From the NCBI GenBank assembly GCA_964518765.1, contig CAZFJC010000012.1:11667-75666 (forward strand): a stretch of DNA of 64,000 nt. The letters are read 5' to 3'. Shown here piece by piece: positions 4,947 through 46,978 of this stretch. The notes beneath the pieces are model-generated. The model saw only the letters and a list, made by a program, of their open reading frames with translations. It had not been told where the DNA came from and did not search any database. Both the position numbers and the translations under genes were made by a program. Position 1 is the stretch's first letter. Each line of letters starts with the position of its first letter. This DNA comes from an uncultured bacterium. GTDB taxonomy: Bacteria > Edwardsbacteria > AC1 > EtOH8.

Positions 4947-5205
4947 CGACGGGCCGCCCCCTATAATAGTTTCGGGCAGCCTAACTCTATGATTAGTTTA
5001 TGATTATTGGGTCTGTTTGTCAAGGGTTTTGTTGAAAATTTATAGTTATTATCTACTATCGCCGGAATGAATATAAAGAAGGCTGGCTGAAGGCTACCTT
5101 CCCTAAAAATGGAGCTTATCTCACCAGAGCCATCTTCCCGGTCTGACCGAACTCTCCTGATTCAAGTGTATTTTTACCTATTGTAATCCAGTTCTCCCCT
5201 GCCTG

Positions 5206-5234
5206 TTGACATCCGTATTTTTATCTGCTAATAT
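5206..5234 (+). promoter_or_regulatory. Sigma70-like promoter (TTGACA-17-TAATAT) upstream of the zinc-ribbon ORF and dnaE
   Basis: TTGACA at 5206-5211, 17-nt spacer, TAATAT at 5229-5234, about 65 nt upstream of the ATG at 5301. Confidence 0.35.
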
Positions 5235-5300
5235 CATCCATCATCCGCGGCGGCTGATAGACCCAAGTTCCATCCACATCTCCGAACCTCAGAACATTCC

Positions 5301-5606
5301 ATGAGACGTTGCCATAAATGCGGCCGGGCGCTCCCCCCGGGGGCCGCCTTCTATAATGTAAGAATCTCGGTGCAGCAGGGCTTCGACGGCGTCATCGAGC
5401 CCGGCCCGGCCGAGGACCTCAAGTCCCTGGTCTCCAAGATCGAGCGGCAGACGGCCGGGGTGCCGGAGCGGCTCTTGGAGGACGAGGTCCACAAGGAGTT
5501 CGACTTCGTGCTCTGCCCCCGCTGCCGCGAGAAGTACTCCGCCAACCCCCTGGACCTCCCCCTGGACTCCAGCCAGATACCCAAGAAGGCCTCCGACCTG
5601 GGCTAA
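5301..5606 (+). CDS. Small zinc-ribbon protein (CxxC ... CxxC), hypothetical
   Basis: 101 aa. MRRCHKCGRALPP.. and ..FVLCPRCREKY give two CxxC pairs. Sits directly upstream of dnaE. Confidence 0.5.
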   Translation: MRRCHKCGRALPPGAAFYNVRISVQQGFDGVIEPGPAEDLKSLVSKIERQTAGVPERLLEDEVHKEFDFVLCPRCREKYSANPLDLPLDSSQIPKKASDLG

Positions 5607-11317: not shown

Positions 11318-11629
11318 TCCCGCTCGCCAGCCACCGCCACCTTCCTGGCGAAGGCTGTGGCGAGCATAGCCTGCCGTGGACAGGATACCTGAATCTTCGA
11401 CAATTTAACTTTAAGGCTCTTCTGGGTTTGGTGTGGGAATAATTGGTGCATTAGAGGGGCATAACTCTAAGGTTTATAGATTGTTACAAGTCATCAGAGA
11501 TTGTTAAAATTCAACTACTTTCCCGCTTTCTCTTCAAAAGAGAAAGCTCCAAAGAGAACTGTCGCTGCACCGCTGCTCTGATGCCCCAATGCCGGCCGTC
11601 TAAAAGCATTGATCACGACCTCCCCGATT

Positions 11630-11666
11630 GTCCCCTCCTTGGTAAGGAGGGGATACAGGGGTGGTC
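11630..11666. repeat. Solo copy of the nested-hairpin repeat (TCCCCTCCTTggtaAGGAGGGGA..AGGGGTGGTC)
   Basis: gtcccctccttggtaaggaggggatacaggggtggtc. Same unit as the tandem copies at 25.7-26.4 kb. Confidence 0.6.
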
Positions 11667-11872
11667 AGCGCCAGCCTTCCCAGCGCAGCAGCGCTGATGC
11701 GACACAGAGCCCCGCCGTCAGCGGTGCGGCCTGGCTTCAGCGCCGAAGAAGCACTCATTGGGTGTTATGCCGCCTGCAGGTTCTGGTTCAATGAGTGCCG
11801 GCGCGGATGCTTGGCCCGCCGCAGCGCTGGGCCTCGGCCTGAGCTCGGCCGAACGGCGGAAAGACTTCTTTG

Positions 11873-17700: not shown

Positions 17701-19174
17701 GGTAGCCCAGCCTCTCCAAGGCTACCCGATTGACATCCTGGATTGTCCCGTTGGCTCCAATGATGATGTTGATGGTCGGGCTTTCCTCATAGAGGAAGCG
17801 GTATTTCTCCTCTGACTTGCGCAGGGCGGTTTCGGTCCACTGCCGTTCGGCTATCTCCACCTTGAGGGCTTCGTTGGCCTCGGCCAGCTCCCGGGTCCGC
17901 TGTTCGACCTTCTCCTCCAGCACCAGGGCGGAGCGCTGTAACTCCTGCTCCATCCGACGCCGGTCGGTGACGTCCTCGGCGATGGAAAGAGTGCCCCAGG
18001 GTGTGGGGTAAACCCAGGTGTAAAAATATCGGCCTCCCTTTTCCTCCTCCATTTGCTGGGGCTGCCCGTCGGACATGGCCCTTTGGAAGGCCTGATGGAT
18101 CGAGGTCCCCTCGAATCCCTGAAGGACCTCTAAGATACTCCTGCCCTCCACCGCCTGGGGGCTCAATCCTAAAAGTTCGGCGTAGGCCTGGTTGCAGTAA
18201 TTGACCGTCATGTCGCGGCGCACCGAAAGTATCGGCGCCCTGATGCAGTCCAGCAGGGTGCGGTGCTTCAGCTCGCTCTCCCGCAGCAGCTCTACGGTTC
18301 TTTTCTTCTCCAGGGCGGCGGCGATGTGCTGGGAGACGAAGGACATGATCTCCTGCTCCGGCTCGCTCAAGCGGCAGCCGGGATCGTAGCTCTGGATGGC
18401 TAGTACTCCGAAGATACGCTCCTCGCTCTTCAAGGGCACCCCCAGCCAGTCGACCGCGGGTGTGCCGTAGCCGCTAATCCCTAGTTTTTCTAGCTCCGCC
18501 CGCCTTTCATGAACCATCAAAAGGGGCCGGCCGCTGCGGATGACATATTCGGTGAGGTTGTTGCCCAGAGGCCGCTCCCGGGGCGGTGAATCCTTTTCGT
18601 CCGAGTAATAGGGAAAGCTCAGGGTGTTGCGGATCGGATCGTGGAGGGCGATGTAGAGGTTGTTCACCGGTATCAGGGTCTTCACCACCTGGTGGATGTC
18701 CTGGTAGAATTTGGCCATGTCGGCGGTCGATCCGGAGAGCTCGGAGATACGATAGAGCGCTTCCCGGATCATCTCGCTCCGCCTGCGTTCGCTCCGCTCC
18801 TGGACCTCGCGCAGGGCCCGCAGGATGGCCGGCGTCAGCCTTCCCAGTTTGTCCTTGATGACGTAGTCGGTGGCTCCGCTTTTAAGAGCCTCCACCGCCA
18901 GCTCCTCCCCCATCACCCCGGAGACGAAGATGAAGGGCACCTCGGGTCGCTTCCGGCGGGTCACCGCCAGGGCCGCCAGCCCGTCGAACCCAGGGACCTT
19001 GTAGTCCGCCAGGATGATGTCCGGCCGGTGGTACTCCAGCCCGGCCAAAAAGTCCTGCTCGGTGGTTACCACCCTGGAGGAATGGGCCAGGTTTGACCGC
19101 TGCAGCTCCTGCTCGATCAGCTTGGCGTCAACCTCGTCGTCCTCTAGGATCAATATCCTTAGTTCCCTGCTCAT
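14774..19174 (-). CDS. Multi-sensor hybrid histidine kinase (N-terminal receiver, GAF, multiple PAS/PAC, HisKA + HATPase_c)
   Basis: 1466 aa. Receiver at the N-terminus (ILILEDDEVDAKL..DIILADYKVPGFDG). Repeated PAS blocks. Two GAF-like segments. C-terminal kinase with H-box (IRHEIGNALTSIKM) and G-boxes (GCGIG..GTGLGLVITKNI). Confidence 0.85.
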   Translation of the reverse strand: MSRELRILILEDDEVDAKLIEQELQRSNLAHSSRVVTTEQDFLAGLEYHRPDIILADYKVPGFDGLAALAVTRRKRPEVPFIFVSGVMGEELAVEALKSGATDYVIKDKLGRLTPAILRALREVQERSERRRSEMIREALYRISELSGSTADMAKFYQDIHQVVKTLIPVNNLYIALHDPIRNTLSFPYYSDEKDSPPRERPLGNNLTEYVIRSGRPLLMVHERRAELEKLGISGYGTPAVDWLGVPLKSEERIFGVLAIQSYDPGCRLSEPEQEIMSFVSQHIAAALEKKRTVELLRESELKHRTLLDCIRAPILSVRRDMTVNYCNQAYAELLGLSPQAVEGRSILEVLQGFEGTSIHQAFQRAMSDGQPQQMEEEKGGRYFYTWVYPTPWGTLSIAEDVTDRRRMEQELQRSALVLEEKVEQRTRELAEANEALKVEIAERQWTETALRKSEEKYRFLYEESPTINIIIGANGTIQDVNRVALERLGYRREEVVGMPVLKFVVFEQREAVLADLERNFRGESTPELQVGVLSRDGSLRTILFSQKNVMIAEEGQPASILISGMDITDRTQSDEARMKYEFAVNASKDLMTLIRSDQVYEAANEAYCQAHRKAREEIVGRTVEEVWGPEAAKIIGQYLEQGFRGEEVHYQKWFEFAALGRRFFDVAYYPYRNHQGIITHVVVVSRDRTEYKLAEDRMSESQRALSTLLSNLPGMAYRRGGQGGNIMEFASQGCLELTGYRPDQLLGEGAVSYDSLVFEEDRMLVEAEHQNAAASRQPFQIIYRIRDASGEERWVWEQGRWVYSSEGQALALEGFVVDITDRKRAERALWEKEEHYRNLFENMPIGVYRTNPEGQVLMANPFLVRMLGYDSLQELQRVNLEKEDIYGPGLSRARFRELIEREGMVRALESEWRRKDGSTIYVRENAIAIRDQTGKTVYYEGTVEDITEQRHARLLEAALYKLAETTGTSRDIQEFYRSVHGVISQLMYARNFYIALVDPATKTLQFPYYVDERDPKPAPRPFGNGITEHVITTGQPLLATGNSIRNMVSAGLITYHGTPDSCWLGVPLKRGEKAFGALVVHSYQESQSYGERDKEVLTFVSHQIALAMERKSAEEERKHLVAAIEQAAEGVVITDPQGAIRYINPAFQEMSGRSREELLGRDRGEVLGGEFQLAYRREIARLLERGRPWHGQFTMSRADGTEFEAEATLSPVTGPDGTAAHVTAVRDVTEQRRLRSIAEAVNTMENIGYVFSGIRHEIGNALTSIKMAIGILSKNLESYPKETIIKVVEMASKEVSRMEDLLRSLKNFSMYESLKPERVEINQFLDKIRLLAGEDFKKRGISIEARLQSGEIVAWLDPRALQQVLLNLLANSADALQGREDARIIISSTKDGEMLEIAVEDNGCGIGREQQRNLFKPFYTSKPSGTGLGLVITKNIMVKMNGEIEVVSERGRGTKVALRLPAAAG

Positions 19175-19338
19175 GGCCCCCTCCTCCGGTTATTGGGGAT
19201 CCTGCCCAGCGTAAGTTTGCCTCCGTCGTTGTCATCCTGAAATGGACTCCTGCCTCGCAAGTTGTCGGATCGCCATTGTCATCCTGGGATGGCTTCCTGC
19301 CTGGCATTTTGAAGGATGACCGCCTCGGGGTGACAGGC

Positions 19339-20445
19339 CTAAAAGAACTTGGCGATGGCCTCGACCACCTGGTCCTGCTGGGCTGGGGTAATCTCAGGGT
19401 ATATCGGCAGCGAGAAGACCTGGCTGGCCGCCTCCTCGGCCACCGGGTAGGAGCCCTTCCCCTTGCCCAGGAACGAGAAGGCCGGCTGCAGGTGCAGGGG
19501 GATGGGATAATGCACGGCGTTGGGCACGCCATTTTTATTCAGGTGCTCGATCATAGCATCCCGCCTTCCGGTGCGCAGGGTGTATTGGTGGTAGATCATC
19601 TCATTGTAGGGCCTGACCTGGGGCGTCCTGATGTCCCCCACCCCCTTGAAGGCCCGGTCGTAGTAGGCCGCCTTCTCCCGTCGCGCCTGGTTCCACTGGT
19701 CGAGATATTTCAGCTTGACGCCCAGCACCGCGGCCTGGAGCGCGTCCAGCCTGGAGTTGACCCCGATCCTGACATGGTGGTACTTCCTGTCCGAGCCGTG
19801 CTGGCGCAGCACCTTGCATTCCCTCTGCATGGCCTCGTCCGAGGTCAGGATCATGCCTCCGTCGCCGTAGGCCCCCAGGTTCTTGCTGGGGAAGAAGGAC
19901 AGTCCGGCGATGTGGCCCATGGAGCCGGTCTGCCGGCCCCGGTATCTGGCCCCCAGGCTCTGGGCGCAGTCCTCGATCACCTTGAGGTTGTGCTTTTGGG
20001 CAATGGCCATTACCTCGTCCATGTCGGCCGCCTGGCCGTAGATGTGCACCGGCATGATGGCCTTGGTCTTGGAGGTGATGGCCGCCTCGATCTTGGTCGG
20101 ATCGATGTTGAGGGTGTCCGGGCAGACGTCCACGAACACCGGCCTGGCCGGGATCCAGGTGACCACCTCGGCGGTGGCGATGAAGGTGAAGGGGGTGGTG
20201 ATGACTTCGTCTCCCTCAGAGACCCCGGCGGCCTTGAGCGCCAGGTAGAGGGCGTCGGTGCCCGAGTTGACCCCTATCCCGTATTTGACCCCGACGTATT
20301 GGGCCACTGCCGCTTCGAACTCCTCGACCGTCTTCCCCAGGATGAAGCCTCCGGAAGAGACCACCTTCTCGATGGCGGCGTCGATTTCGGGCTTGATGGT
20401 GCGGTACTGGGCCGTTAGGTCCAGCAGGTAGAGTTTTTCTGCCAT
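19339..20445 (-). CDS. DegT/DnrJ/EryC1/StrS-family PLP-dependent sugar aminotransferase
   Basis: 368 aa. LDLTAQYRTIKPEIDAAI..GGFILGKTVEEFE..GVNSGTDALYLAL..DEVITTPFTFIATAE is the canonical family pattern. Confidence 0.85.
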   Translation of the reverse strand: MAEKLYLLDLTAQYRTIKPEIDAAIEKVVSSGGFILGKTVEEFEAAVAQYVGVKYGIGVNSGTDALYLALKAAGVSEGDEVITTPFTFIATAEVVTWIPARPVFVDVCPDTLNIDPTKIEAAITSKTKAIMPVHIYGQAADMDEVMAIAQKHNLKVIEDCAQSLGARYRGRQTGSMGHIAGLSFFPSKNLGAYGDGGMILTSDEAMQRECKVLRQHGSDRKYHHVRIGVNSRLDALQAAVLGVKLKYLDQWNQARREKAAYYDRAFKGVGDIRTPQVRPYNEMIYHQYTLRTGRRDAMIEHLNKNGVPNAVHYPIPLHLQPAFSFLGKGKGSYPVAEEAASQVFSLPIYPEITPAQQDQVVEAIAKFF

Positions 20446-20571
20446 GGTGTTGGTTCCTTTATGGATTTATGTGTAAGTTTTAACGTTTAAGGGTTTGCGA
20501 AACGGGCGTAGCCGGTTTAAGTGACGACCACAATAAAGAATAATGTGAAACTGCTGACGCAAACCCGTTTG

Positions 20572-21309
20572 TTATGTGAAGTGGTTTAATTCATACTTAC
20601 TTAGCTTTGTTTTTATTTTATTAGATACACAAGTATTATATTTTAAGTTTATAATGTAATCGGTTACTTTATACTCAAATTCTTTTATTGGCATACCAAA
20701 TGTATCAAAAAAACAACGAACAAAATCTTTTTTTATATTCTTGTAAAATGTTTTGAATTTTGAAACACCAAAACGAGTTATTATCTGGTCAATAAAAACG
20801 CCAGCTATAGGATATGTTACATAATCTTGGTGTTTGTTGAATTCTTGATTTTGGGCTAACTTTGTTATACCAGGATAAGCGTTATTTTTAAGGTAATATT
20901 GAGTCCACGCTTCATTCGGGATTCCCCACCAAACTTTATCAAAGTACATTGCCAGACCTTCGCGTAACAATTTCTGATTTGGTCTTGATAAGGTGTTAGA
21001 AGAGATTAAATGCACGTCCTCGTGAAAACCAATACATTTAATTCTTCTATTGTATACAGCATATATTTTATCTGGACGTATAGCAAGACCATTGGTAGGT
21101 TCATTATTACCATATAGTTTGCCAATTTCATGTGGTGATTTACATAAATAATAATGTATTCTTATATTAGGCTTGACTTTTAGAATATCACAAATATATA
21201 CATAGCAACTTTCTTGAAGTGAGATTATCTTTCCGATTTGTTTTTCCGCAAGAGAGTTGCTGTGATAATAAAAGTCATAGTGTGCTGTTTTTTTGATGTT
21301 CCAATTCAT
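20572..21309 (-). CDS. Hypothetical protein carrying an HExxH motif (FHEDVH), in an AT-rich island (~30% GC vs ~65% flanking); possibly a WbqC-like polysaccharide-locus protein
   Basis: 245 aa, Asn/Lys/Tyr/Ile-rich as expected from low-GC DNA. Single HEDVH motif. No signal peptide or TM segment. Directly adjacent to the DegT aminotransferase. Confidence 0.55.
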   Translation of the reverse strand: MNWNIKKTAHYDFYYHSNSLAEKQIGKIISLQESCYVYICDILKVKPNIRIHYYLCKSPHEIGKLYGNNEPTNGLAIRPDKIYAVYNRRIKCIGFHEDVHLISSNTLSRPNQKLLREGLAMYFDKVWWGIPNEAWTQYYLKNNAYPGITKLAQNQEFNKHQDYVTYPIAGVFIDQIITRFGVSKFKTFYKNIKKDFVRCFFDTFGMPIKEFEYKVTDYIINLKYNTCVSNKIKTKLSKYELNHFT

Positions 21310-21532
21310 AAAATTAGAAAATTGTGTGTTTATTTATAGCCATTTCACATAACTACTGGCTTTGCGACATTACGTCGTGAAGCCGACCACCAGTGGCTGG
21401 ATATGCGCACTGTTTCGTATATTTCCTCAATGGCTTTTACCCGTTCAACACTGCCTATAGCCCCTTACCCGACGTTGCCTTACTTTGACCGATCGTAAAC
21501 ACTCCCCGCGCCGCTGTATATATACCTTATCC

Positions 21533-23290
21533 TCACGTCCCCTCCACCGAACAGGTCAGGGCCAGGTCCGGGAACAGCCCGATGACGAACTCGGCCAGCA
21601 CCGCCCGGGCCTTCTCGGCGCTCTCGGCCTCCATGGCCTTGGCCGCCACCCGACGGCACTGATCCAGCCTTAGGCTGAGGATCATCCGCTTGACCTCGGG
21701 TACGGCTATCGGATTCATGCTGAACTCGTCCAGGCCCAGCCCCAAAAGCAGCGGCACCGCCAGCGGATCGGCGCACATCTCGCCGCACATGCCCACCCAG
21801 ATACCGGCCCGGTGCCCGGCCTCGATCACCTCCCTCACCAGCCTCAGCACCGCCGGGTTGAAGGGATCGTACATCCGGGCCACCTTCTGGTTGGTGCGGT
21901 CCACCGCCAAGGTGTACTGGGTGAGATCGTTGGAGCCGATGCTGAAGAAGTCGGCCTCGGCCGCCAGCGCCTGGGCCGACAATGCGGCCGCCGGCGTCTC
22001 GATCATAATGCCCACCGGACACTTCTCGTCGAACCTGGCCTTGGATTTCTTCAGCTCCTCCCTGGCCTCCTCGACCAGGACCCTGGCCCGCCTCAGTTCC
22101 TCCAGGCAGCAGATCATGGGAAACATCATCTTGACCTGGCCGTGGGCCGAGGCCTTGAGGATGGCCCGTATCTGTGACTTGAACATCTCGGGCCGGTCCA
22201 GGCAGAAGCGGATGGCCCTCCAGCCCAGGAAGGGGTTGGCCTCGGGCTCGGGCGCCTGGCCGCCGATCTTGTCCCCGCCCAGGTCGAAGGTCCTGATGAT
22301 GACCGGATCCGGGGCCAGCTTCTCGACCACTCGCCGGTAGATGGCGTACTGCTCGTCCTCGGACGGCAGCCGGTCCGAGGTCAGGAAGAGGAACTCGGTG
22401 CGGAAAAGGCCCACCCCCTTGGCCCCGTGCGACAACACCGAGGCGACCTCCTCGGGCAGCTCGATGTTGGCCGACAGCTCCACCTGATGTCCGTCCCGGG
22501 TAATGGCCTTGGAGCGCCTCAGCTTCTTGAGGTCGGCCACGTGCTTCAGGTAGGCCTTTTGCTGTTTGCGGTAGCTCTCCAGGGTGGCCGGGGCCGGGTT
22601 GAGGATGACCATCCCCCGGTTGCCGTCGACCACAGCCCAGTCTCCCTGCGAGGCCTGGATCAGTACACCCTTGACGCCCACCACCGTCGGTATCTCCAGA
22701 CTGCGGGCGATGATGGCGGTATGGGAGGTCTTACCTCCCAGCTCGGTGACCATCCCCAAGGTCCTCTGGGCGGACAGAAAAGCGGCGTCGCCAGGGGAAA
22801 GCTCGTGTGCCAGCACGATGGACTCTTTGGGGATGCTCGGCGCCTGGCCCTGCTCGCGGACGTGCTTGACCACCCGCCAGGAGATATCCTTGATGTCGAC
22901 CACCCTCTCCTTGAGGTACTGGCTGTCCGATGACTCCAGCTGGGCCGCCACCTGCTCCATCACCTCGTGGAAGGCCGAGGCCGCGTCCTGTCCCTCGCGG
23001 CGGATCCTCTCCTTGGTGCGCTCGGCGGCAGTGTCGTCGGAGAGCATCATCAGCTGGGCATCCCACAGCCGGGACTCATCCTGGCCAAGCCGCTCCACCA
23101 CCAGGCTTCGCAGCTCATCCAACTCGGCCCGGGCCCGCTCCACCGCCTCGACGAACCTCTGGACCTCGGACTCGGCGTCGGCCACCTTCTGCCTGGTCAC
23201 CGCCCCAGTGCCCTTGCGGTAGATGGCGATCCGCCCGATGCCGATGCCGGGCGAGGCGGCTATCCCTTGAAGCCTGATCTCCTTCAGCAT
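21533..23290 (-). CDS. ptsI: Phosphoenolpyruvate-protein phosphotransferase (PTS enzyme I)
   Basis: 585 aa. MLKEIRLQGIAASPGIGIGR.. N-terminus. His-domain, PEP-utilising domain (GGKTSHTAIIARSLEIP) and C-terminal TIM barrel. Confidence 0.9.
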   Translation of the reverse strand: MLKEIRLQGIAASPGIGIGRIAIYRKGTGAVTRQKVADAESEVQRFVEAVERARAELDELRSLVVERLGQDESRLWDAQLMMLSDDTAAERTKERIRREGQDAASAFHEVMEQVAAQLESSDSQYLKERVVDIKDISWRVVKHVREQGQAPSIPKESIVLAHELSPGDAAFLSAQRTLGMVTELGGKTSHTAIIARSLEIPTVVGVKGVLIQASQGDWAVVDGNRGMVILNPAPATLESYRKQQKAYLKHVADLKKLRRSKAITRDGHQVELSANIELPEEVASVLSHGAKGVGLFRTEFLFLTSDRLPSEDEQYAIYRRVVEKLAPDPVIIRTFDLGGDKIGGQAPEPEANPFLGWRAIRFCLDRPEMFKSQIRAILKASAHGQVKMMFPMICCLEELRRARVLVEEAREELKKSKARFDEKCPVGIMIETPAAALSAQALAAEADFFSIGSNDLTQYTLAVDRTNQKVARMYDPFNPAVLRLVREVIEAGHRAGIWVGMCGEMCADPLAVPLLLGLGLDEFSMNPIAVPEVKRMILSLRLDQCRRVAAKAMEAESAEKARAVLAEFVIGLFPDLALTCSVEGT

Positions 23291-23291
23291 C

Positions 23292-23558
23292 TCAATCCTC
23301 GTTGAATTTGTCGGCCACCAGCCGGGCCAGGGCCTCCAAGGCCTCGTCCTCGTCCGGACCCTGGGCCCTGATGTGGAGGCTGGAGCCGGGCTGGGCCGCC
23401 AGCATCATCACCCCCATAATGCTCTTGCCGTTGACCTCCAGGTCGTCCTTGCGTATCCATATCTGGGAGCGATAGCGGTCAGCAGTCTTCACCATCAGGG
23501 CCGCCGGCCGGGCATGCATCCCCAGCCGGTTGACGATGGTCACCGAGATCTCCTTCAT
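23292..23558 (-). CDS. ptsH: Phosphocarrier protein HPr
   Basis: Conserved MKEISVTIVNRLGMHARPAALMV (His15 motif) ..GKSIMGVMML..EDEALEALARL. The track ORF (to 23702) has a spurious N-terminal extension; the true ATG is at 23558 and overlaps the GH57 stop (ATGA). Confidence 0.85.
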   Translation of the reverse strand: MKEISVTIVNRLGMHARPAALMVKTADRYRSQIWIRKDDLEVNGKSIMGVMMLAAQPGSSLHIRAQGPDEDEALEALARLVADKFNED

Positions 23559-25639
23559 GGCCTCACCTCTATCGTCAGCTCCAGCGATTCGGCCCCGCCC
23601 GGATCCAGCCGCATCGGCTTGGTCCAGACCAGGCAGGAGCACTGGTAGTTCCGTTCCAGACCGGACTCGGACTGGGAGACCGTCTCCACCGGGTAGCGCC
23701 ATAGGTCCCAGGGCCGGTCGAACCTGAAGCGGACAGCGATCCCCCGAAAATCGTCGTCAACCGAAAAATCTGTCAGCCCCCGCTCCTCGGCCGCCAGGTC
23801 CAGCCGGGCTGACGACAGCTCCCGGCTTCCGGATGAGCAATGCCTCCCTTCGCCGGCCGACAACAGCCCCAGGTTGAACTCGATCCCGGCCACCACCTCC
23901 AGAGCCTCCGCCCCCCGGTTCGTCCACCGATAGCTCGCCCGCAGCGCGGCCTTCGAGGCCAGGGATAGGTTTTTTTCTATAACTATATTATTATAGTAAC
24001 CAACCAATCCCACGCCATCATATTTCCCCTCGGCCTTCATCTCCCAGCGGGTGGCCAGCACCCCCTGGTAGGCCGGGAGCCGAGACCAGCGCAGCGCCTC
24101 CAGGCCGGCCCCGGGCGGCAGCAGGTGGTCGGCCAGGGCCATCCTGGGGCAGGGATCGTAGGCCAGCAGCTTCTCCAGCCCCGCCTCCTTGGCCGACATC
24201 ATCTCGTGGATGCTCCTGCCCGCCGTCGCTTCTCCGGCCTGGTGCTCGGCGATCCGGCGGTGGTAGCTCTCGGGGCGACGGGAGAGGTTGTCCAGGAGGT
24301 TTACCCCCTTCCGCTTCAGGTCCCACTCGTATATGGCCCCGCCCCAATCCGGCTTGAGATAGAGGTTCATCTTCGCATTGGAGAGCTTGATCTCCGCCCG
24401 CCCGTCGCCGTCAAAATCACGACGCTCAACCGCTCGCTGCCCAGCCTGCCTTTCCGCCAGGTGCTCGGCCCTGATCAGGTGCTGGTACAAAGCCGAGCGT
24501 AGATGCGGCAGGTAGAGCCCCCCGAAGATGCCGTGCCAATAGCCGCAGTTGCACTGTCCGCGGTAGAGCTCTTTTTGTACCTCGGCCCCGGCTTGCGCCG
24601 AACTATGTCGAGGCGCCTTGGCCGCCATCTCCGAGACCTCGAGCATCTTGCGGTAGATAAAGTTCGATTCCGGGTACTTGGCCAAGAAGTTCTTCCAGAT
24701 GCCGCCCCGGACGAACGGGGCGTAGCGATCGTAGCTGCCCTCGTGCTTCAGACGATCGACCAGCTCCCGATAGACGGCCTCGGACTCAGGCTCCAGCACC
24801 CATTCGCCCATCTCGGTATAGGAGCCGGTTGGCAGGTAGATCCTCCCTAGGGGGCCGAGCCTTTCGGCCGCCTGGGCAAAGGTCAGCATCTCTATCCGCT
24901 CATGGTTGGCCTGCAGCGCCTCGAGAAACCTGGCCAGCCAGCCGTTGTTATATACGTGCTGGTGGGTGCCCGGCCAGACCCCGAACTTCTCCCCGTCGTC
25001 GGCCAGGATGGCCATCTCCCCGGGCCGGTATTCGCCGACCAGGTGTCCGATGACCTCCTCCACGTCGTGGAAGGGCACCAGGTACCGCAGCCTCTGGCTT
25101 ATGGGGAAGGCCTTGATGCCCAGTCCCTGGTCCTCGGTGAAATAGTAGCCCTTGAGCCTCTCCTGGGGAAGGCCGGCCGCCTTGAAGTGGGCGTCGTCCA
25201 GCGCCGTGCACTCGATGCCGGCCCGGGCCAGGGTCGACGGCAGTGATGGCTCCCAGACCCGCTCGGCCACCCAGGCTCCTTTGGGGCTTTGGCCGAAATT
25301 GGACTTCAGGAATTCCGACATCATGGCCAGCTGGCCGGCGCGGTCGGGCTCCGGGATAGCCGGCAGTATGGGCTCGTAGAACCCTCCGCCCCACAGCTCC
25401 ACCTGTCCGCGGTCGCAAAGCGTCTTGACCATAGCCAGGTACTCGGAATGATGCTCGGCCAGCCACTCCCAGAGGCAGCCGCTATTGTGCAGGGTGAAGC
25501 GGAACCAGGGGCGGTCCAAGACCATCTCCAGGAACGGACGGTAGGCATTCTGGTAAGCCTCCTCGAACACGAAGTCGAAGTTGCCCACCGGCTGGTGGTT
25601 GTGGACGCCGAAGAGGAAGTATGTTTTGTTGGAGTCCAT
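23555..25639 (-). CDS. Glycoside hydrolase family 57 protein (4-alpha-glucanotransferase/amylopullulanase-like)
   Basis: 694 aa. GH57 N-terminal signature YFLFGVHNHQPVGNF..AYQNAYRPFLE..WFRFTLHNSGCLWEWL. Confidence 0.85.
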   Translation of the reverse strand: MDSNKTYFLFGVHNHQPVGNFDFVFEEAYQNAYRPFLEMVLDRPWFRFTLHNSGCLWEWLAEHHSEYLAMVKTLCDRGQVELWGGGFYEPILPAIPEPDRAGQLAMMSEFLKSNFGQSPKGAWVAERVWEPSLPSTLARAGIECTALDDAHFKAAGLPQERLKGYYFTEDQGLGIKAFPISQRLRYLVPFHDVEEVIGHLVGEYRPGEMAILADDGEKFGVWPGTHQHVYNNGWLARFLEALQANHERIEMLTFAQAAERLGPLGRIYLPTGSYTEMGEWVLEPESEAVYRELVDRLKHEGSYDRYAPFVRGGIWKNFLAKYPESNFIYRKMLEVSEMAAKAPRHSSAQAGAEVQKELYRGQCNCGYWHGIFGGLYLPHLRSALYQHLIRAEHLAERQAGQRAVERRDFDGDGRAEIKLSNAKMNLYLKPDWGGAIYEWDLKRKGVNLLDNLSRRPESYHRRIAEHQAGEATAGRSIHEMMSAKEAGLEKLLAYDPCPRMALADHLLPPGAGLEALRWSRLPAYQGVLATRWEMKAEGKYDGVGLVGYYNNIVIEKNLSLASKAALRASYRWTNRGAEALEVVAGIEFNLGLLSAGEGRHCSSGSRELSSARLDLAAEERGLTDFSVDDDFRGIAVRFRFDRPWDLWRYPVETVSQSESGLERNYQCSCLVWTKPMRLDPGGAESLELTIEVRP

Positions 25640-25692
25640 TCGGTCAAAATGCGATTAATATTTCATCCATACAGACGCAAGCCCCTGGCCTT

Positions 25693-25908
25693 CGGCCGCC
25701 CCTCGCTCCCCTCCTTGGTAAGGAGGGGATTTAGGGGTGGTTGGTTCGCCGCACCCCTCGCTCCCCTCCTTGGTAAAGAGGGGATTTAGGGGTGGTTGGT
25801 TCGCCGCCTCTCTTGTTCCCCTCCTTGGTAAGGAGGGGACTCAGGGGTGGTTGGTTCGCCGCGCCCCTCGCTCCCCTCCTTGGTAAGGAGGGGATTTAGG
25901 GGTGGTCA
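25693..25908. repeat. Tandem array of four 55-nt nested-hairpin repeat units
   Basis: Unit cgccgcNcccctcgctcccctccttggtaaggaggggatttaggggtggttggtt. Outer stem CCACCCCT/AGGGGTGG, inner stem TCCCCTCCTT/AAGGAGGGGA. The array directly abuts the stop of the DUF559 gene. Confidence 0.8.
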
Positions 25909-26262
25909 GTCCCTTGCATTTAGTATAGCTTTCAACACACCTTCCATGTTCGCTAAAACATCGTCATTGTTGAAGCGAAGCACTTTGATGCCCAACCCCT
26001 CTATGTAATCTTGTTTCTTCTTGTCCCGCACCCCTTGCCTTGGGCTTCCATGCACGCTCCCGTCTAATTCAATGGCGATTCGAGCAGAGGGACAATAGAA
26101 ATCGACGATATATTTACCGATGCTGTGCTGACGCCGGAACTTCATCCCGTTAAGTTGGCTTCTTTGCAGCCTTTTCCAAAGCAGTATCTCGGCCATTGTC
26201 GAATTGTTGCGCAGGCTCCTTCGAATGCTTTTCAATCCTGGACGGTTATGAACTCGGGCCAT
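25906..26262 (-). CDS. DUF559 (Vsr/restriction-endonuclease-like fold) endonuclease-domain protein
   Basis: MARVHNRPGLKSIRRSLRNNSTMAEILLWKRLQRSQLNGMKFRRQHSIGKYIVDFYCPSARIAIELDGSVH. Lower GC (~47%). The track ORF extends to a GTG at 26292 inside the adjacent repeat; ATG at 26262 preferred. Confidence 0.75.
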   Translation of the reverse strand: MARVHNRPGLKSIRRSLRNNSTMAEILLWKRLQRSQLNGMKFRRQHSIGKYIVDFYCPSARIAIELDGSVHGSPRQGVRDKKKQDYIEGLGIKVLRFNNDDVLANMEGVLKAILNARD

Positions 26263-26287
26263 TTCAGTAATACCCTGTTTGCTCTCG

Positions 26288-26430
26288 ACCACCCCTCGCT
26301 CCCCTCCTTGGTAAGGAGGGGATTTAGGGGTGGTTGGTTCGCCGCGCTCCCTCGCTCCCCTCCTTGGTAAGGAGGGGATTTAGGGGTGGTTGGTTCGCCG
26401 CGTCCCCCTCCCCCGGGGGAGGGGGACGGG
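26288..26430. repeat. Two further nested-hairpin units plus a perfect 28-nt GC palindrome (GTCCCCCTCCCCCGGGGGAGGGGGAC)
   Basis: Same unit as 25693-25908, immediately upstream of the DUF559 start. Palindrome at 26402-26429. Confidence 0.75.
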
Positions 26431-26482
26431 GTAGGGTCAACCCGAAAAGTGTAAAAGTGTAAAAGGGTATAGCGTAAACATT

Positions 26483-26734
26483 TTACTTTGCGAGACGAAA
26501 GCCTACGCCGCTGCTGCGGTTGTCCGGGTTGTCGTTGCCCCGGTAGGCAGTGCGGCAGTAGTTACCGCTGTTGATGAAACTGCCGCCGCGGATGACGCGG
26601 GCCGTTCCGGACGACGGGCCGGTAGGGTTGTCGCGAGATCCGCCGGAGGCGTGGCTGGAGGGCGAACTGCCGTAGTAATTTTTGTGTGTGCTTAAAAAGC
26701 CACAAACCGTAATCATACGCTTTCGTAAAAACAA
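26483..26734 (-). pseudogene. Truncated 3' fragment of a formylglycine-generating-enzyme (SUMF1) family gene; partial duplicate of the C-terminus of the adjacent 26801..28720 gene
   Basis: ..[65 protein letters not shown] aligns with the neighbour's C-terminus [58 protein letters not shown]. No upstream domains. The N-terminal 18 aa of the ORF are not homologous. Confidence 0.55.
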
Positions 26735-26752
26735 TCAGCTCGTTGGCGCTCA

Positions 26753-26795
26753 TAATTTTCCAGATTTTCAGATTACCAGATTTTCAGATATTCAG
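26753..26795. repeat. Short tandem repeat, ~8-nt unit (CAGATTTT/CAGATTAC/CAGATTTT/CAGATATT)
   Basis: ttttccagattttcagattaccagattttcagatattcag, between the gene fragment and the full-length gene. Confidence 0.6.
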
Positions 26796-26800
26796 TGTAT

Positions 26801-28720
26801 TTACTGGGCGACACGGAAGCCGATGTTGTCGTTCCTGATGCCCGGGTAGTTCCTGCCGCGGTAGGCGGAACGGCAGTTGCTTGCAATGTTGTCCCAGCTT
26901 CCGCCGCGCAGCACCCGGAGGTCGCCAAAGGACGGGCCGGTAGGGTTATTGGAGGGCGAACTGCCGTAGTAATTTTCGCCATACCAGTCGTTGCACCACT
27001 CCCAAACATTGCCGGCCATGTCGTGGCACCCATAGGGCGAAACGCCGGAGGGAAAACTGCCCACCGGGGAGGTGTTAGTATAGTCTCCGTCTTCATAACT
27101 ATTGCATTTGCCGGCATCCCAAGTGTTGCCCCATGGGTATTTTCTTCCATCAGTCCCCCGGGCCGCCTTCTCCCATTCGGCCTCGGTGGGCAGGCGCAGG
27201 CCTGCCCAGTCGCAGTAGGCTTTGGCATCGTGCCAGGTTACATTCACCACCGGGTGGTCGTTCCTATTATTCCAAGAGGGCTGTTCCGGCATGGTCCTGC
27301 CCGTGGCATTGCAGAACTTTCGGAACTGCCCCACCGTCACCTCGTATTTGCCTATGTAGTATTTGTCCAAGTAAACCGTGTGCACCGGCTTTTCGTCACC
27401 GTCGCCGTCATCAGAGCCCATGGTGAAGCTGCCGGCCGGGATCTCTATCAGCACCGAGCCGTCCTTTTCGTTCACTATCTCTCGGCCTTTCGCAGCTTGA
27501 CCACCCCTCGTCTCCCCTCCTTGCCCAAGGAGGGGACTAAGGGGTGGTTGGGTGGTCTTCAGCACCACATTCCGCGCCACGCTCTGCCCCGGCCCCACGC
27601 TTACGCTCACCTGCCCCACCTGGTAGCCGTTCTTTTCCACCTTAACATTGTATGTCCCCGGTTCCAGCCCGGTAACACTGCAGGGGGTGATGCCCCGCGG
27701 CGTTCCGTCAACGTTAACGCTGGCCCCGCTGGGCGTGCTGGTTATCACTATCGAGCCCGGCTTGGGGGAAAGCACCGCATTCAACGTGTTTCCCTCCCCG
27801 CTTTCTATGGTCATCTCCACCTCGTAGGTCGCATAGCCGGTTTTGCTCACCCTTATCTTATGGACACCGATCCCCAGCCCGGCAACCTTCAAACCTGTCG
27901 AACCTGCCCCGAGCGAAGTCGAGGGGCCTGTCAAACCTTTTCTGACGCCATCTATGTAAACAGTAGAGTTTGCCGGCTCCGAGGTTACGGTCAGCGTTCC
28001 GTATTCTTTGGTCAGAACCGCATTGACCGAGGCGGTGATATTCTTGGCCACATTCACCGTTTTGGAGACGCTGCTGTAGCCGTCCTTGACTATGACTATG
28101 TTGTGCTCTCCTATTTCTATTTTGGATATAAGCCCCGGGGTGGCCCCGACGTCAGCCCCGTCCAGAAAGATCCGGGCGCCAGGCGGCGTGGAACTAACCT
28201 TTATACTGCCGTATTCGGATTTTGTCTCGGCTATGGGCGTGGCCGTCGGCTTCGGCTTCCATCTGGAGAACTCGGCCGCCGCCTCCTTCATGGCATCAAG
28301 GAGATTGGAGATGTCGCCCGTGTATTTCTTGGAGAAGGCCATGTCTATCTCGCCGGTCTTGACGTCGATCATCCGCAGCTCCACGGCGAAGACCGCCCCG
28401 AACTTGCCGATGGTTCCGCCGAACATCTTCTGCACCCCCAGGTACTGCCCGGCCTCCACCAGGCAGGAGGTGGCGTCGCAGGCCCCGCTCTGCTGGAATC
28501 CCTGCTCGCGGAGGATCTCGTCGCGCTTGGAGCGCTCGATTACCTTGTAGGCCCCCTGGCCGACGAACTCGTTCAAGAGCTTGTCGGTCAGCATCACCAC
28601 CTCCTTGGCCGACAGACCCTCGGTGACGTTGAGGTCCATCACCGAGACCGTCAGCTTCTGGGCGGCGGCCAGGCCTGCCAGCAGAAGTGTGGCGATTGTT
28701 ATCTTAACCAGCCTATCCAT
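26801..28720 (-). CDS. Lipoprotein with three PEGA domains and a C-terminal formylglycine-generating enzyme (SUMF1/FGE-sulfatase) domain
   Basis: 639 aa. Signal peptide [25 protein letters not shown]-like repeats ([12 protein letters not shown].., [12 protein letters not shown].., [12 protein letters not shown]..). FGE domain ([51 protein letters not shown]). Confidence 0.8.
27498..27557. repeat. Copy of the nested-hairpin repeat embedded in-frame inside the PEGA/FGE coding sequence (linker region)
   Basis: gaccacccctcgtctcccctccttgcccaaggaggggactaaggggtggttgggtggtc is 60 nt (20 codons). Translated on the minus strand it gives ..[20 protein letters not shown].. between the last PEGA repeat and the FGE domain. 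Confidence 0.65.
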
Positions 28721-45356: not shown

Positions 45357-45752
45357 TCAATGTTCACGAATGTTTTCATAAGCCGTCTCGATTTCGGCAA
45401 TCACTTTCCCGATGTCGTTCAGCACCTCCTCGTTCCTGAACCTCATAACCCTTATGTCCCGCCGCTTCATGACATCCTCGCGGTGCCGATCGTATTCCTT
45501 TTGCCTGTCGTGTATTTCACCATCCAGCTCTACCGCCAAGCGCATCTTATTACAGTAGAAATCGGCGATGAAGCCGTCGATCACCTGCTGCCGCCTGAAC
45601 TGCAGGCCCATCACCTTGTTGTTCCGAACCGCGTTCCAGAAGACACGTTCGGCCTTGGTCATGTTGCGGCGCAGATGCTTGGCCAGTGCGTGTTTTCCCG
45701 GGCTTATCCTCTGGCCGGTGCATACTCCGGGCAGGCGCTTTCTCTCAGCCAT
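45357..45752 (-). CDS. DUF559 endonuclease-domain protein (second paralog)
   Basis: 131 aa. ..MTKAERVFWNAVRNNKVMGLQFRRQQVIDGFIADFYCNKMRLAVELDGEIH.., same family as 25906..26262. GC ~52%, below background. Confidence 0.75.
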   Translation of the reverse strand: MAERKRLPGVCTGQRISPGKHALAKHLRRNMTKAERVFWNAVRNNKVMGLQFRRQQVIDGFIADFYCNKMRLAVELDGEIHDRQKEYDRHREDVMKRRDIRVMRFRNEEVLNDIGKVIAEIETAYENIREH

Positions 45753-45764
45753 TTCGCTATTGAC

Positions 45765-45811
45765 CCCACCCCGCCCTCCTCGAAGGCTTTCGGGGAGGGT
45801 ACCGGGAGGGG
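45765..45811. repeat. GC-rich imperfect hairpin with CCCTCC/GGAGGG arms filling the gap-DUF559 intergenic space; a looser relative of the nested-hairpin family (no extended sequence identity)
   Basis: ccccaccccgCCCTCCtcgaaggctttcggGGAGGGtaccgggagggg. Confidence 0.5.

Positions 45812-46978
<1,167 letters not shown>

Follow-up and report, generated by a model that had tools for sequence, protein, structure and literature searches.

The nested palindrome and its host gene

The DNA analysed here (hereafter, the window) is a stretch of 64,000 nucleotides from an uncultured bacterium of the Edwardsbacteria lineage (GenBank assembly GCA_964518765.1, contig CAZFJC010000012.1, positions 11,667 to 75,666). 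Its subject is a short nested palindrome that lies inside a protein-coding gene. The host gene (26801..28720, minus strand) encodes a protein of 639 residues with a signal peptide, a CsgG-like N-terminal domain, three PEGA domains and an FGE-sulfatase domain of the C-type-lectin fold that ends in a hypervariable C-terminus. The closest named homologs of this protein come from candidate division TA06 and Candidatus Edwardsbacteria. In the initial annotation, the protein was called a lipoprotein, a label that is unsupported given that the signal peptide lacks a lipobox cysteine. The last Pfam match to PEGA/CarboxypepD_reg covers residues 349-388, and the FGE-sulfatase match covers residues 424-638.

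The flagged element (27499..27557; here and below, repeats and hairpins are given without a strand) is present at the reported site. It is 59 nt long, not 60 nt from 27498 as first described, position 27498 adding a T outside the quoted string. The element consists of a copy of the nested palindromic repeat and, as a duplicate of the right outer arm, an additional GGGTGGTC (27550-27557). In the hairpin core (27500..27548), an outer stem, ACCACCCCT (27500-27508) paired with AGGGGTGGT (27540-27548), encloses an inner stem, TCCCCTCCTT (27513-27522) paired with AAGGAGGGGA (27527-27536), with the loop GCCC at 27523-27526. The inner palindrome is thus exact at 27513-27536, with a 10-bp stem and a 4-nt loop, and had no matches in 100 shuffles. 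The outer arms form a 9-bp inverted repeat, that is, terminal inverted repeats of the kind expected of a miniature inverted-repeat transposable element (MITE), and the right arm contains a perfect AAGGAGG. The predicted folding energy of the gene-strand RNA is −41.4 kcal/mol (z −3.65), a value reached by none of 200 shuffled sequences; the z-score of the DNA fold is −4.3.

In agreement with the initial annotation, the element lies wholly inside the open reading frame (ORF) and is read in frame as the interdomain linker between the last PEGA domain and the FGE domain. The lineage-specific segment (27488..27556, minus strand; 69 nt, 23 codons) codes for residues 389-411, between a conserved ...VVLK and a conserved peptide on the FGE side. 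The hairpin itself codes for residues ~391-407, and residues 389-411 have no counterpart in any relative.

A dispersed repeat family in the window

The flagged hairpin is a true copy of a dispersed repeat. A census with a repeat finder, confined to the 64 kb of the window, yielded eight copies at three loci (family D2). Apart from the genic copy, these comprise a solitary intergenic copy (11618..11668) in a spacer of ~720 nt, four tandem copies with a period of 55 nt (25694..25909) that abut the 3' end of a gene for a DUF559 endonuclease, and two tandem copies (26287..26397) that abut the 5' end of the same gene. The core of the family is ~47-51 nt long. The inner stem, TCCCCTCCTT / AAGGAGGGGA, is exact in six of the intergenic copies and carries one mismatch in the seventh; the outer arms, ACC[A/T]CCCC(T) and (A)GGGG[T/A]GGT, follow a few bases beyond it and are present in the genic copy as well. 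All 19 stem pairs of the genic copy are perfect and have the same sequence as those of the intergenic copies, and the differences are limited to the loop and the two spacers. The genic copy matches the copy at 26287 at 50 of 59 positions in the same (+) orientation, and is therefore antisense to the host gene; a flipped orientation, with 43 identities compared to 50, was rejected. Directly after the two tandem copies is a hairpin of a second family with a pyrimidine arm and a purine arm (CGTCCCCCTCCCCCGGGGGAGGGGGACG, 26401..26428). In total, the window holds 10 hairpins with a pyrimidine-only 5' arm and at least eight paired bases, of which the flagged copy is the only genic one, a distribution that fits selection against copies in genes. 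An Rfam scan of 25500-27700 produced only sub-threshold matches to eukaryotic miRNA hairpin models, which we take to be chance, and no family for the element; in the searchable literature, we found no description of the element, of its stem sequences or of DUF559 together with palindromic repeats.

These observations bear on two trivial explanations, both named in the initial annotation as potentially refuting: an ancestral linker that is palindromic by coincidence, and a sequencing or assembly error. Linkers rich in Pro and Gly are GC-rich and can be weakly self-complementary. Against this stand the perfect stems shared with the intergenic copies, the lack of matches in shuffled sequence and the finding that no ortholog shares the segment. 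Moreover, an independent assembly (Logan ERR4549765, L132) contains the gene together with the hairpin at 99.9% identity, which rules out an assembly error. Both coincidence and artefact are excluded.

Open reading frames through palindromic arms

On both strands, the 5' arms of the repeat consist of pyrimidines only and the 3' arms of purines only. Arms that contain only C and T, or only A and G, cannot include TAA, TAG or TGA in any of the six frames, so that stop codons are possible only in the loop and the spacers, and each copy of the family has one or two open frames per strand. The arms translate to Pro, Ser and Leu, followed by Gly, Glu, Lys and Arg. The same rule is valid for all five types of hairpin linker that we found at this junction among the orthologs (see below). 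Accordingly, the length of the element, which the initial annotation gave as a multiple of three and considered informative about size constraints, says little on this matter: the arms are free of stops in every frame, and the lengths of the loop and the spacers vary among copies.

Tolerance of such a copy by a gene probably rests on three properties: the absence of stop codons from the arms in all six frames, the presumably flexible and hydrophilic character of the peptide that the arms encode, and a position between folded domains. The design rule, then, is a pyrimidine-only arm and a purine-only arm, open in every reading frame. Such repeats would be a general and cheap source of new linker peptides; they would also, time and again, give rise to spurious ORFs, break contigs and leave odd Pro/Gly segments in proteins predicted from metagenomes.

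Distribution of the family in other genomes

One genome per species was scanned for exact matches to TCCCCTCCTT-N3-4-AAGGAGGGGA; this gave at least 120 loci (L008-L127), in which the inner palindrome is preserved base for base across more than 15 phyla. Among the matches listed are Bacteroidota (including cultured Hymenobacter, Salegentibacter and Rhodohalobacter), Nitrospinota, Nitrospirota, anammox Planctomycetota, Ignavibacteria, many Patescibacteria, Acidobacteriota, Zixibacteria, Omnitrophota, Elusimicrobia, Chloroflexi and several classes of Proteobacteria. At least one outer arm (ACC[A/T]CCCC or GGGG[T/A]GGT) accompanies 107 of the 135 copies listed in other genomes (79%), compared to ~1% expected by chance. 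The A/T middle base of the two outer arms varies without covariation, and we do not claim a selected outer helix. The inner palindrome (20 nt) and the outer arms are conserved in every base across the >15 phyla (for example, L016 343, L103 3284 and L106 3736), whereas identity among the associated DUF559 proteins is only 32-76%. Both arms resemble the Shine-Dalgarno and anti-Shine-Dalgarno sequences (AAGGAGG / CCTCCTT).

In-frame copies are less exceptional than the initial annotation assumed. Among the 135 copies listed in other phyla, 16 are located in ORFs that extend for 60 codons or more to either side without a stop, and in at least seven of these 16 the gene is recognisable. In-frame copies occur in unrelated genes, namely those for BirA, GT2, a U32 peptidase, PpiD and helicases; Pfam confirmed four of the hosts, the GT2 glycosyltransferase, BirA, the U32 peptidase, which contains three hairpin peptides, and the PpiD-like chaperone. 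In BirA, the copy is contained in an insertion of 36 residues; the residues on either side of this insertion are direct neighbours in the solved structure of the Pyrococcus enzyme (1WNL). Spread by phages was considered and rejected, given that only 12 matching stretches were found in 2.9 million viral contigs.

Probable hairpin replacement at the PEGA-FGE junction

If the flagged copy were a simple insertion, orthologs of the host gene would be expected to lack the 20-codon segment and to show an empty site. This is not what the alignment reveals. In each of the eight full-length orthologs (51-77% identical), the same junction is bridged by a linker of comparable length whose DNA forms a strong hairpin, the partial orthologs also have a hairpin-type linker, and the hairpins fall into five mutually unrelated stem sequences, including that of the window. 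The other four are CCCCCTTCCCCC/GGGGGAAGGGGG (L001 and L006, with a matching peptide in P0008), TCCCTCCCCT/AGGGGAGGGA accompanied by a second small hairpin (L002, L003 and L004, and also the partial P0028 and P0037), CCCTCTCCAAA/TTTGGAGAGGG (L005) and CCCCTCT/AGAGGGG (L007). Common to all five is the design with a pyrimidine arm and a purine arm, and most have outer arms resembling AACC...GGTT. Three of the linker types recur in unrelated genomes that had been retrieved for another purpose, and none recurs in shuffled sequence; like that of the window, the other linker types are dispersed families.

The pattern of divergence is uneven. At the DNA level, same-type linkers share 86-94% identity, compared to 63-81% in the 300-nt flanks on each side, whereas linkers of different types are 48-63% identical, compared to 72-85% in the flanks. 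Because a hairpin linker is present in all orthologs, the site appears to have been occupied already, and the copy in the window would be a lineage-specific replacement, rather than a simple insertion into an empty site. The ortholog pattern points to punctuated replacement at a persistent hot spot, rather than to one clean insertion or to a linker inherited from the ancestor that diverged gradually.

Of the four partial orthologs, three stop at a contig edge inside the linker hairpin (P0015, P0037 and L129 3210-3217), as expected of repeated sequence. Linker repeats appear to break short-read assemblies within genes.

The mosaic structure of the protein family brings to mind a different role for the hairpins, namely as recombination joints: the linker palindromes would provide the microhomology by which the FGE module is moved from one scaffold to another, with the linker copy as the scar of such a joint. 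Between clades, the N-terminal domains are 26-30% identical and the FGE domains 72-88% identical (P0001-P0009, P0012 and L129-L131); recombinant combinations were found in L129, L130 and L131, all from one metagenome (Ga0272448); and in P0012, the same PEGA scaffold is joined to a TonB_C domain exactly at this junction. The P0012 junction, however, has no hairpin (fold z +0.7), the linker type tracks neither the N-terminal clade nor the FGE domain, and unequal evolutionary rates of the domains could yield much of the apparent mosaicism. We therefore regard recombination joints as an unlikely explanation of the linker copy.

An interpretation that appears slightly less likely still is that the hairpin is a selected cis-element of the host gene, either an mRNA structure in which the AAGGAGG, similar to a Shine-Dalgarno sequence, pauses translation between domains, or a DNA cruciform that serves some process at the locus, such as diversification of the FGE domain. 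The perfect AAGGAGG in the right arm and the remnants of a diversity-generating retroelement (DGR) that adjoin the host gene are compatible with this possibility, as are the strong hairpins at the same junction in every ortholog and the conservation of same-type linkers above that of the flanking coding DNA. Nevertheless, the stems are those of the intergenic repeats in the window and in other phyla, and some relatives do without a hairpin: in addition to P0012, P0024 has an ordinary 15-residue linker (fold z −1.1), and the paralogs without PEGA domains have ordinary linkers and keep the native FGE lead-in GLTYLxxNxQGYKEY. In L130 and L131, furthermore, the left arm of the hairpin is visibly decaying. 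As for a role in diversification, the hairpin is ~700 nt upstream of the variable C-terminus, and there is no active template repeat or reverse transcriptase nearby.

Taken together, these results make it probable that the flagged element belongs to a dispersed family of nested, non-coding palindromic repeats and is read through as a tolerated linker, at a hot-spot junction that has been overwritten repeatedly. Under this model, the ancestor of these orthologs already held an earlier hairpin element at the junction, and in different lineages the junction would have been overwritten by whichever hairpin family the genome contains, in this genome the one that also surrounds the neighbouring DUF559 gene. 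The new copy could have arrived by transposition or, with a copy elsewhere in the genome as donor, by short-patch gene conversion; the palindrome already at the site may have been the target, and DUF559 is a candidate for the enzyme involved. The ribosome would simply read through the repeat at the unstructured PEGA/FGE junction, and the linker peptide may have no function beyond that of a spacer. For the targeting of a palindrome there is a precedent, because repetitive extragenic palindromic (REP) elements are known targets of insertion sequences (PMC1525189).

Several observations weigh against this interpretation. An empty-site allele of the PEGA/FGE gene was not found among the orthologs examined, and a metagenome scan for further orthologs added only three new loci, with no empty site that would define the limits of the event or a target-site duplication; no flanking direct repeat is evident at the flagged copy. 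The presence of a hairpin in all orthologs and the conservation of its DNA above the flanks could instead reflect selection for structure. No transposase was seen adjoining the at least 120 copies listed in other genomes, and mobilisation of the repeat is only putative. An AlphaFold2 model places beta structure up to residue 386 and no secondary structure at residues 389-413, where pLDDT is 24-33, but this model is weak (mean pLDDT 58, from a 9-sequence alignment) and the FGE domain is poorly modelled as well, so that the low linker pLDDT is not specific evidence of disorder.

Of the two explanations proposed in the initial annotation, a tolerated repeat insertion exapted as a linker holds insofar as the element is a true dispersed copy, in frame and translated as an interdomain linker, and fails insofar as the orthologs are not empty and there was apparently no simple insertion. 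The other, that the elements target linker-encoding DNA, is compatible with the hot-spot pattern, which falls short of demonstrating it. A single junction that behaves as a hot spot is a natural setting in which to ask whether such repeats are targeted to one another or favour the shuffling of domains.

Association with DUF559 nucleases

The gene between the tandem copies (25906..26262, minus strand) encodes a DUF559 endonuclease, a Vsr-like protein of the PD-(D/E)XK type, and is bracketed by AGGGGTGGTC (25899-25908) and GACCACCCCT (26287-26296). A second DUF559 gene (45357..45752, minus strand), 38% identical to the first, is located between a GAPDH gene and a gene for a small secreted protein. 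Directly upstream of it is a diverged nested hairpin with a pyrimidine arm and a purine arm (GACCCCACCCC...GGGAGGGGTCAG, 45761..45814; DNA fold z −4.9).

This association extends beyond the window. DUF559 is the only enriched neighbour family beside the at least 120 cross-phylum copies listed, being found at five loci and always 0-54 nt away. Among the best 120 DUF559 homologs, 33 have C-terminal peptides that are encoded by hairpin arms (TTP.SPPSQGGD, PLLRKEGK), compared to two with such peptides at the N-terminus, none internally and two in shuffled sequences. Even in two homologs picked for the absence of this tail, the palindrome is found on both sides of the gene, in the order inner hairpin, GGGG[A/T]GGT, gene, ACCACCCC, inner hairpin. 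The DUF559 genes in the ortholog loci also abut hairpins of this kind (L002 5834-6260, L003 12550-12787 and L004 6573-7049), with a different family on both sides in L004. Palindrome-bracketed DUF559 genes, including those at L135 1400-1950 and L136 1400-1970, were seen in TA06-like, Bacteroidales-like, gammaproteobacterial, candidate phyla radiation (CPR) and other genomes. A cognate pairing of DUF559 clades with hairpin types is weakly supported, with L072 and L111 as exceptions, and was not retained.

The stretch 25694-26397 of the window, with two copies, the DUF559 gene and four further copies, corresponds to a single hairpin unit (L132 2560-2720) in the independent assembly, which is of the same population; the only record of the window DUF559 protein is from the NCBI assembly. 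The difference is either a real presence/absence polymorphism of a DUF559 cassette or a collapse of repeats by the assembler.

The nearest solved structure for this DUF559 subfamily is 3HRL, whose function is unknown. The Vsr/DUF559 clade groups with a group I intron homing endonuclease (PDB 3R3P; PMC3424549), and a nuclease proven to act in a mobile element is thus among the proteins with the fold of the neighbouring gene product. Unlike in the homing endonucleases, no intron or intein is involved here, intact palindromes flank the gene on both sides, and the activity of the DUF559 subfamily is only putative. DUF559 is thus a candidate partner enzyme of the repeat. We would further propose, tentatively and with doubt prevailing, that the palindromes and the DUF559 genes they bracket constitute an undescribed repeat-plus-nuclease system, either similar to REP elements with their RAYT transposases (see below) or a free-standing homing endonuclease with a dispersed palindromic target, which would be spread across most bacterial phyla, with solo palindromes colonising intergenic DNA as well as protein linkers and loops. 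If such a system exists, its stop-free solo palindromes would make new linker peptides, replacement hot spots and, perhaps, domain shuffling. Through the link to DUF559, a large family of nucleases of unknown role, YcjD of E. coli among them, also gains a function that can be tested.

Other small cassette genes reminiscent of intervening sequences (the 23S_rRNA_IVP four-helix bundle and PDDEXK_3) were observed near DUF559 genes at L002 6737-7102, L003 13295-13627 and L004 3298-3672.

Comparison with known repeat systems

The closest known analogue of the element is the Rickettsia palindromic element (RPE). RPEs are multi-copy palindromes with intergenic copies and in-frame, translated genic copies (Ogata et al. 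2000, Science 290:347, and 2002, Genome Res 12:808; summarised in PMC10969869). The resemblance is in behaviour: in both cases, multi-copy palindromes occupy intergenic DNA and genes, the genic copies are in frame and translated, and several related families coexist; the flagged copy, located between Pfam domains, and the BirA copy, located in an insertion, may also resemble RPEs in sitting where the fold tolerates them. The differences are no less clear. The element is ~50 nt long, compared to 100-150 nt for RPEs; its core is preserved base for base in more than 15 phyla, compared to one genus; it is open in all frames owing to its pyrimidine-only and purine-only arms, in contrast to the one conserved ORF of RPEs; and it is associated with a DUF559 nuclease gene. 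The size and the host, a relative of TA06/Edwardsbacteria, do not correspond to any of RPE-1 to RPE-10, and the element, for which no Rfam or other match was found, has no apparent sequence relationship to them. What is seen here is RPE-like behaviour, but in an element that is much shorter and has an identical core across more than 15 phyla.

In architecture, the element is closer to REP elements and their bacterial interspersed mosaic (BIME) arrays, which are associated with RAYT (Y1) transposases and fall into REP classes (PMC3733652). As in these systems, short palindromes, which are imperfect in REPs, are both dispersed and clustered in tandem, copies lie on either side of a small gene of nuclease type, and paralogs of this gene adjoin different variants of the palindrome (the two copies of the gene in the window, and L004). 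Unlike in REP-RAYT systems, none of the element copies read contains a GTAG or CGTC tag, and the flanked gene encodes a PD-(D/E)XK DUF559 protein rather than an HUH Y1 transposase. REPs are, moreover, extragenic by definition, whereas the flagged copy and at least seven other copies of the family are inside genes.

A RAYT as the mobilising enzyme in the window was rejected. No Y1 homolog was detected in the window in a tblastn search with the Y1_Tnp protein of L005 (best E-value 0.13), and the RAYT-like genes of L005 and L134 are accompanied by different REPs. In these two loci, the slot downstream of the PEGA gene (L005 7250-8280 and L134 2050-3050) holds a Y1 (RAYT-like) transposase amid small hairpins with GTAG or CTGAAG loops, a repeat system different from that of the window.

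In-frame genic copies are also on record for MITEs and similar repeats, namely Correia/NEMIS, ERIC, BOX and Nezha (reviewed in PMC10969869). Like MITEs, the element is small, non-autonomous, ends in inverted repeats and is occasionally fused in frame to host ORFs; it differs from them in that no target-site duplication or parent insertion sequence was identified and in being much shorter than typical MITEs. Overall, the element combines RPE-like behaviour, REP-RAYT-like architecture and MITE-like inverted ends, and is not a member of the RPE family by size, sequence or host.

Finally, there is a resemblance to the BoxC repeats of E. coli, which are ~56 bp long and occur in ~22-32 copies (PMC2267715). 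BoxC repeats are dispersed and rich in pyrimidine and purine runs (CCCTCTCCCC...GGGGCGAGGGG), and the motif ACCCTAACCC is common to BoxC and the linker hairpin of the orthologs L001 and L006. In E. coli K-12 (L149; NC_000913.3), BoxC-like repeats directly follow ycjD, the model DUF559 gene, in the fabI-ycjD spacer (5186-5250 and 5390-5430). The repeat in this spacer is found at a median of 16 places per E. coli genome and, given this copy number, is a putative BoxC. These copies fold no better than shuffled sequences (z −0.6 and −1.6), so that BoxC is kept only as a lead, by resemblance, and not as a member of the family.

Additional features near the host gene

A degenerate DGR cassette (26483-26753, minus strand) is located just after the host gene. 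It includes a fragment of 25 residues that is 44% identical to the N-terminal end of the L003 bAvd protein; joined to this fragment is an AAC-rich duplicate of the FGE 3' end, 77% identical to the host gene. The 49 mismatches of this repeat are distributed as C 16, A 14, G 12 and T 7 and, thus, are not adenine-specific, and no reverse-transcriptase ORF was found in 19000-26000; an active DGR was rejected for the downstream FGE fragment on these grounds. Likewise, the flagged hairpin is upstream of the FGE domain, which is not the position of a DGR cis-element, after the variable region. The C-termini of the orthologs are hypervariable, and L003 has an intact bAvd gene and a 17-bp hairpin right after the PEGA/FGE gene.

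Within the FGE domain of the host gene itself, there is another perfect palindrome, with 9-bp arms (TGGGCAGGC-GCAG-GCCTGCCCA, 27187-27208). It codes for the invariant WAGLRLPT motif and is probably a coincidence of this conserved peptide.

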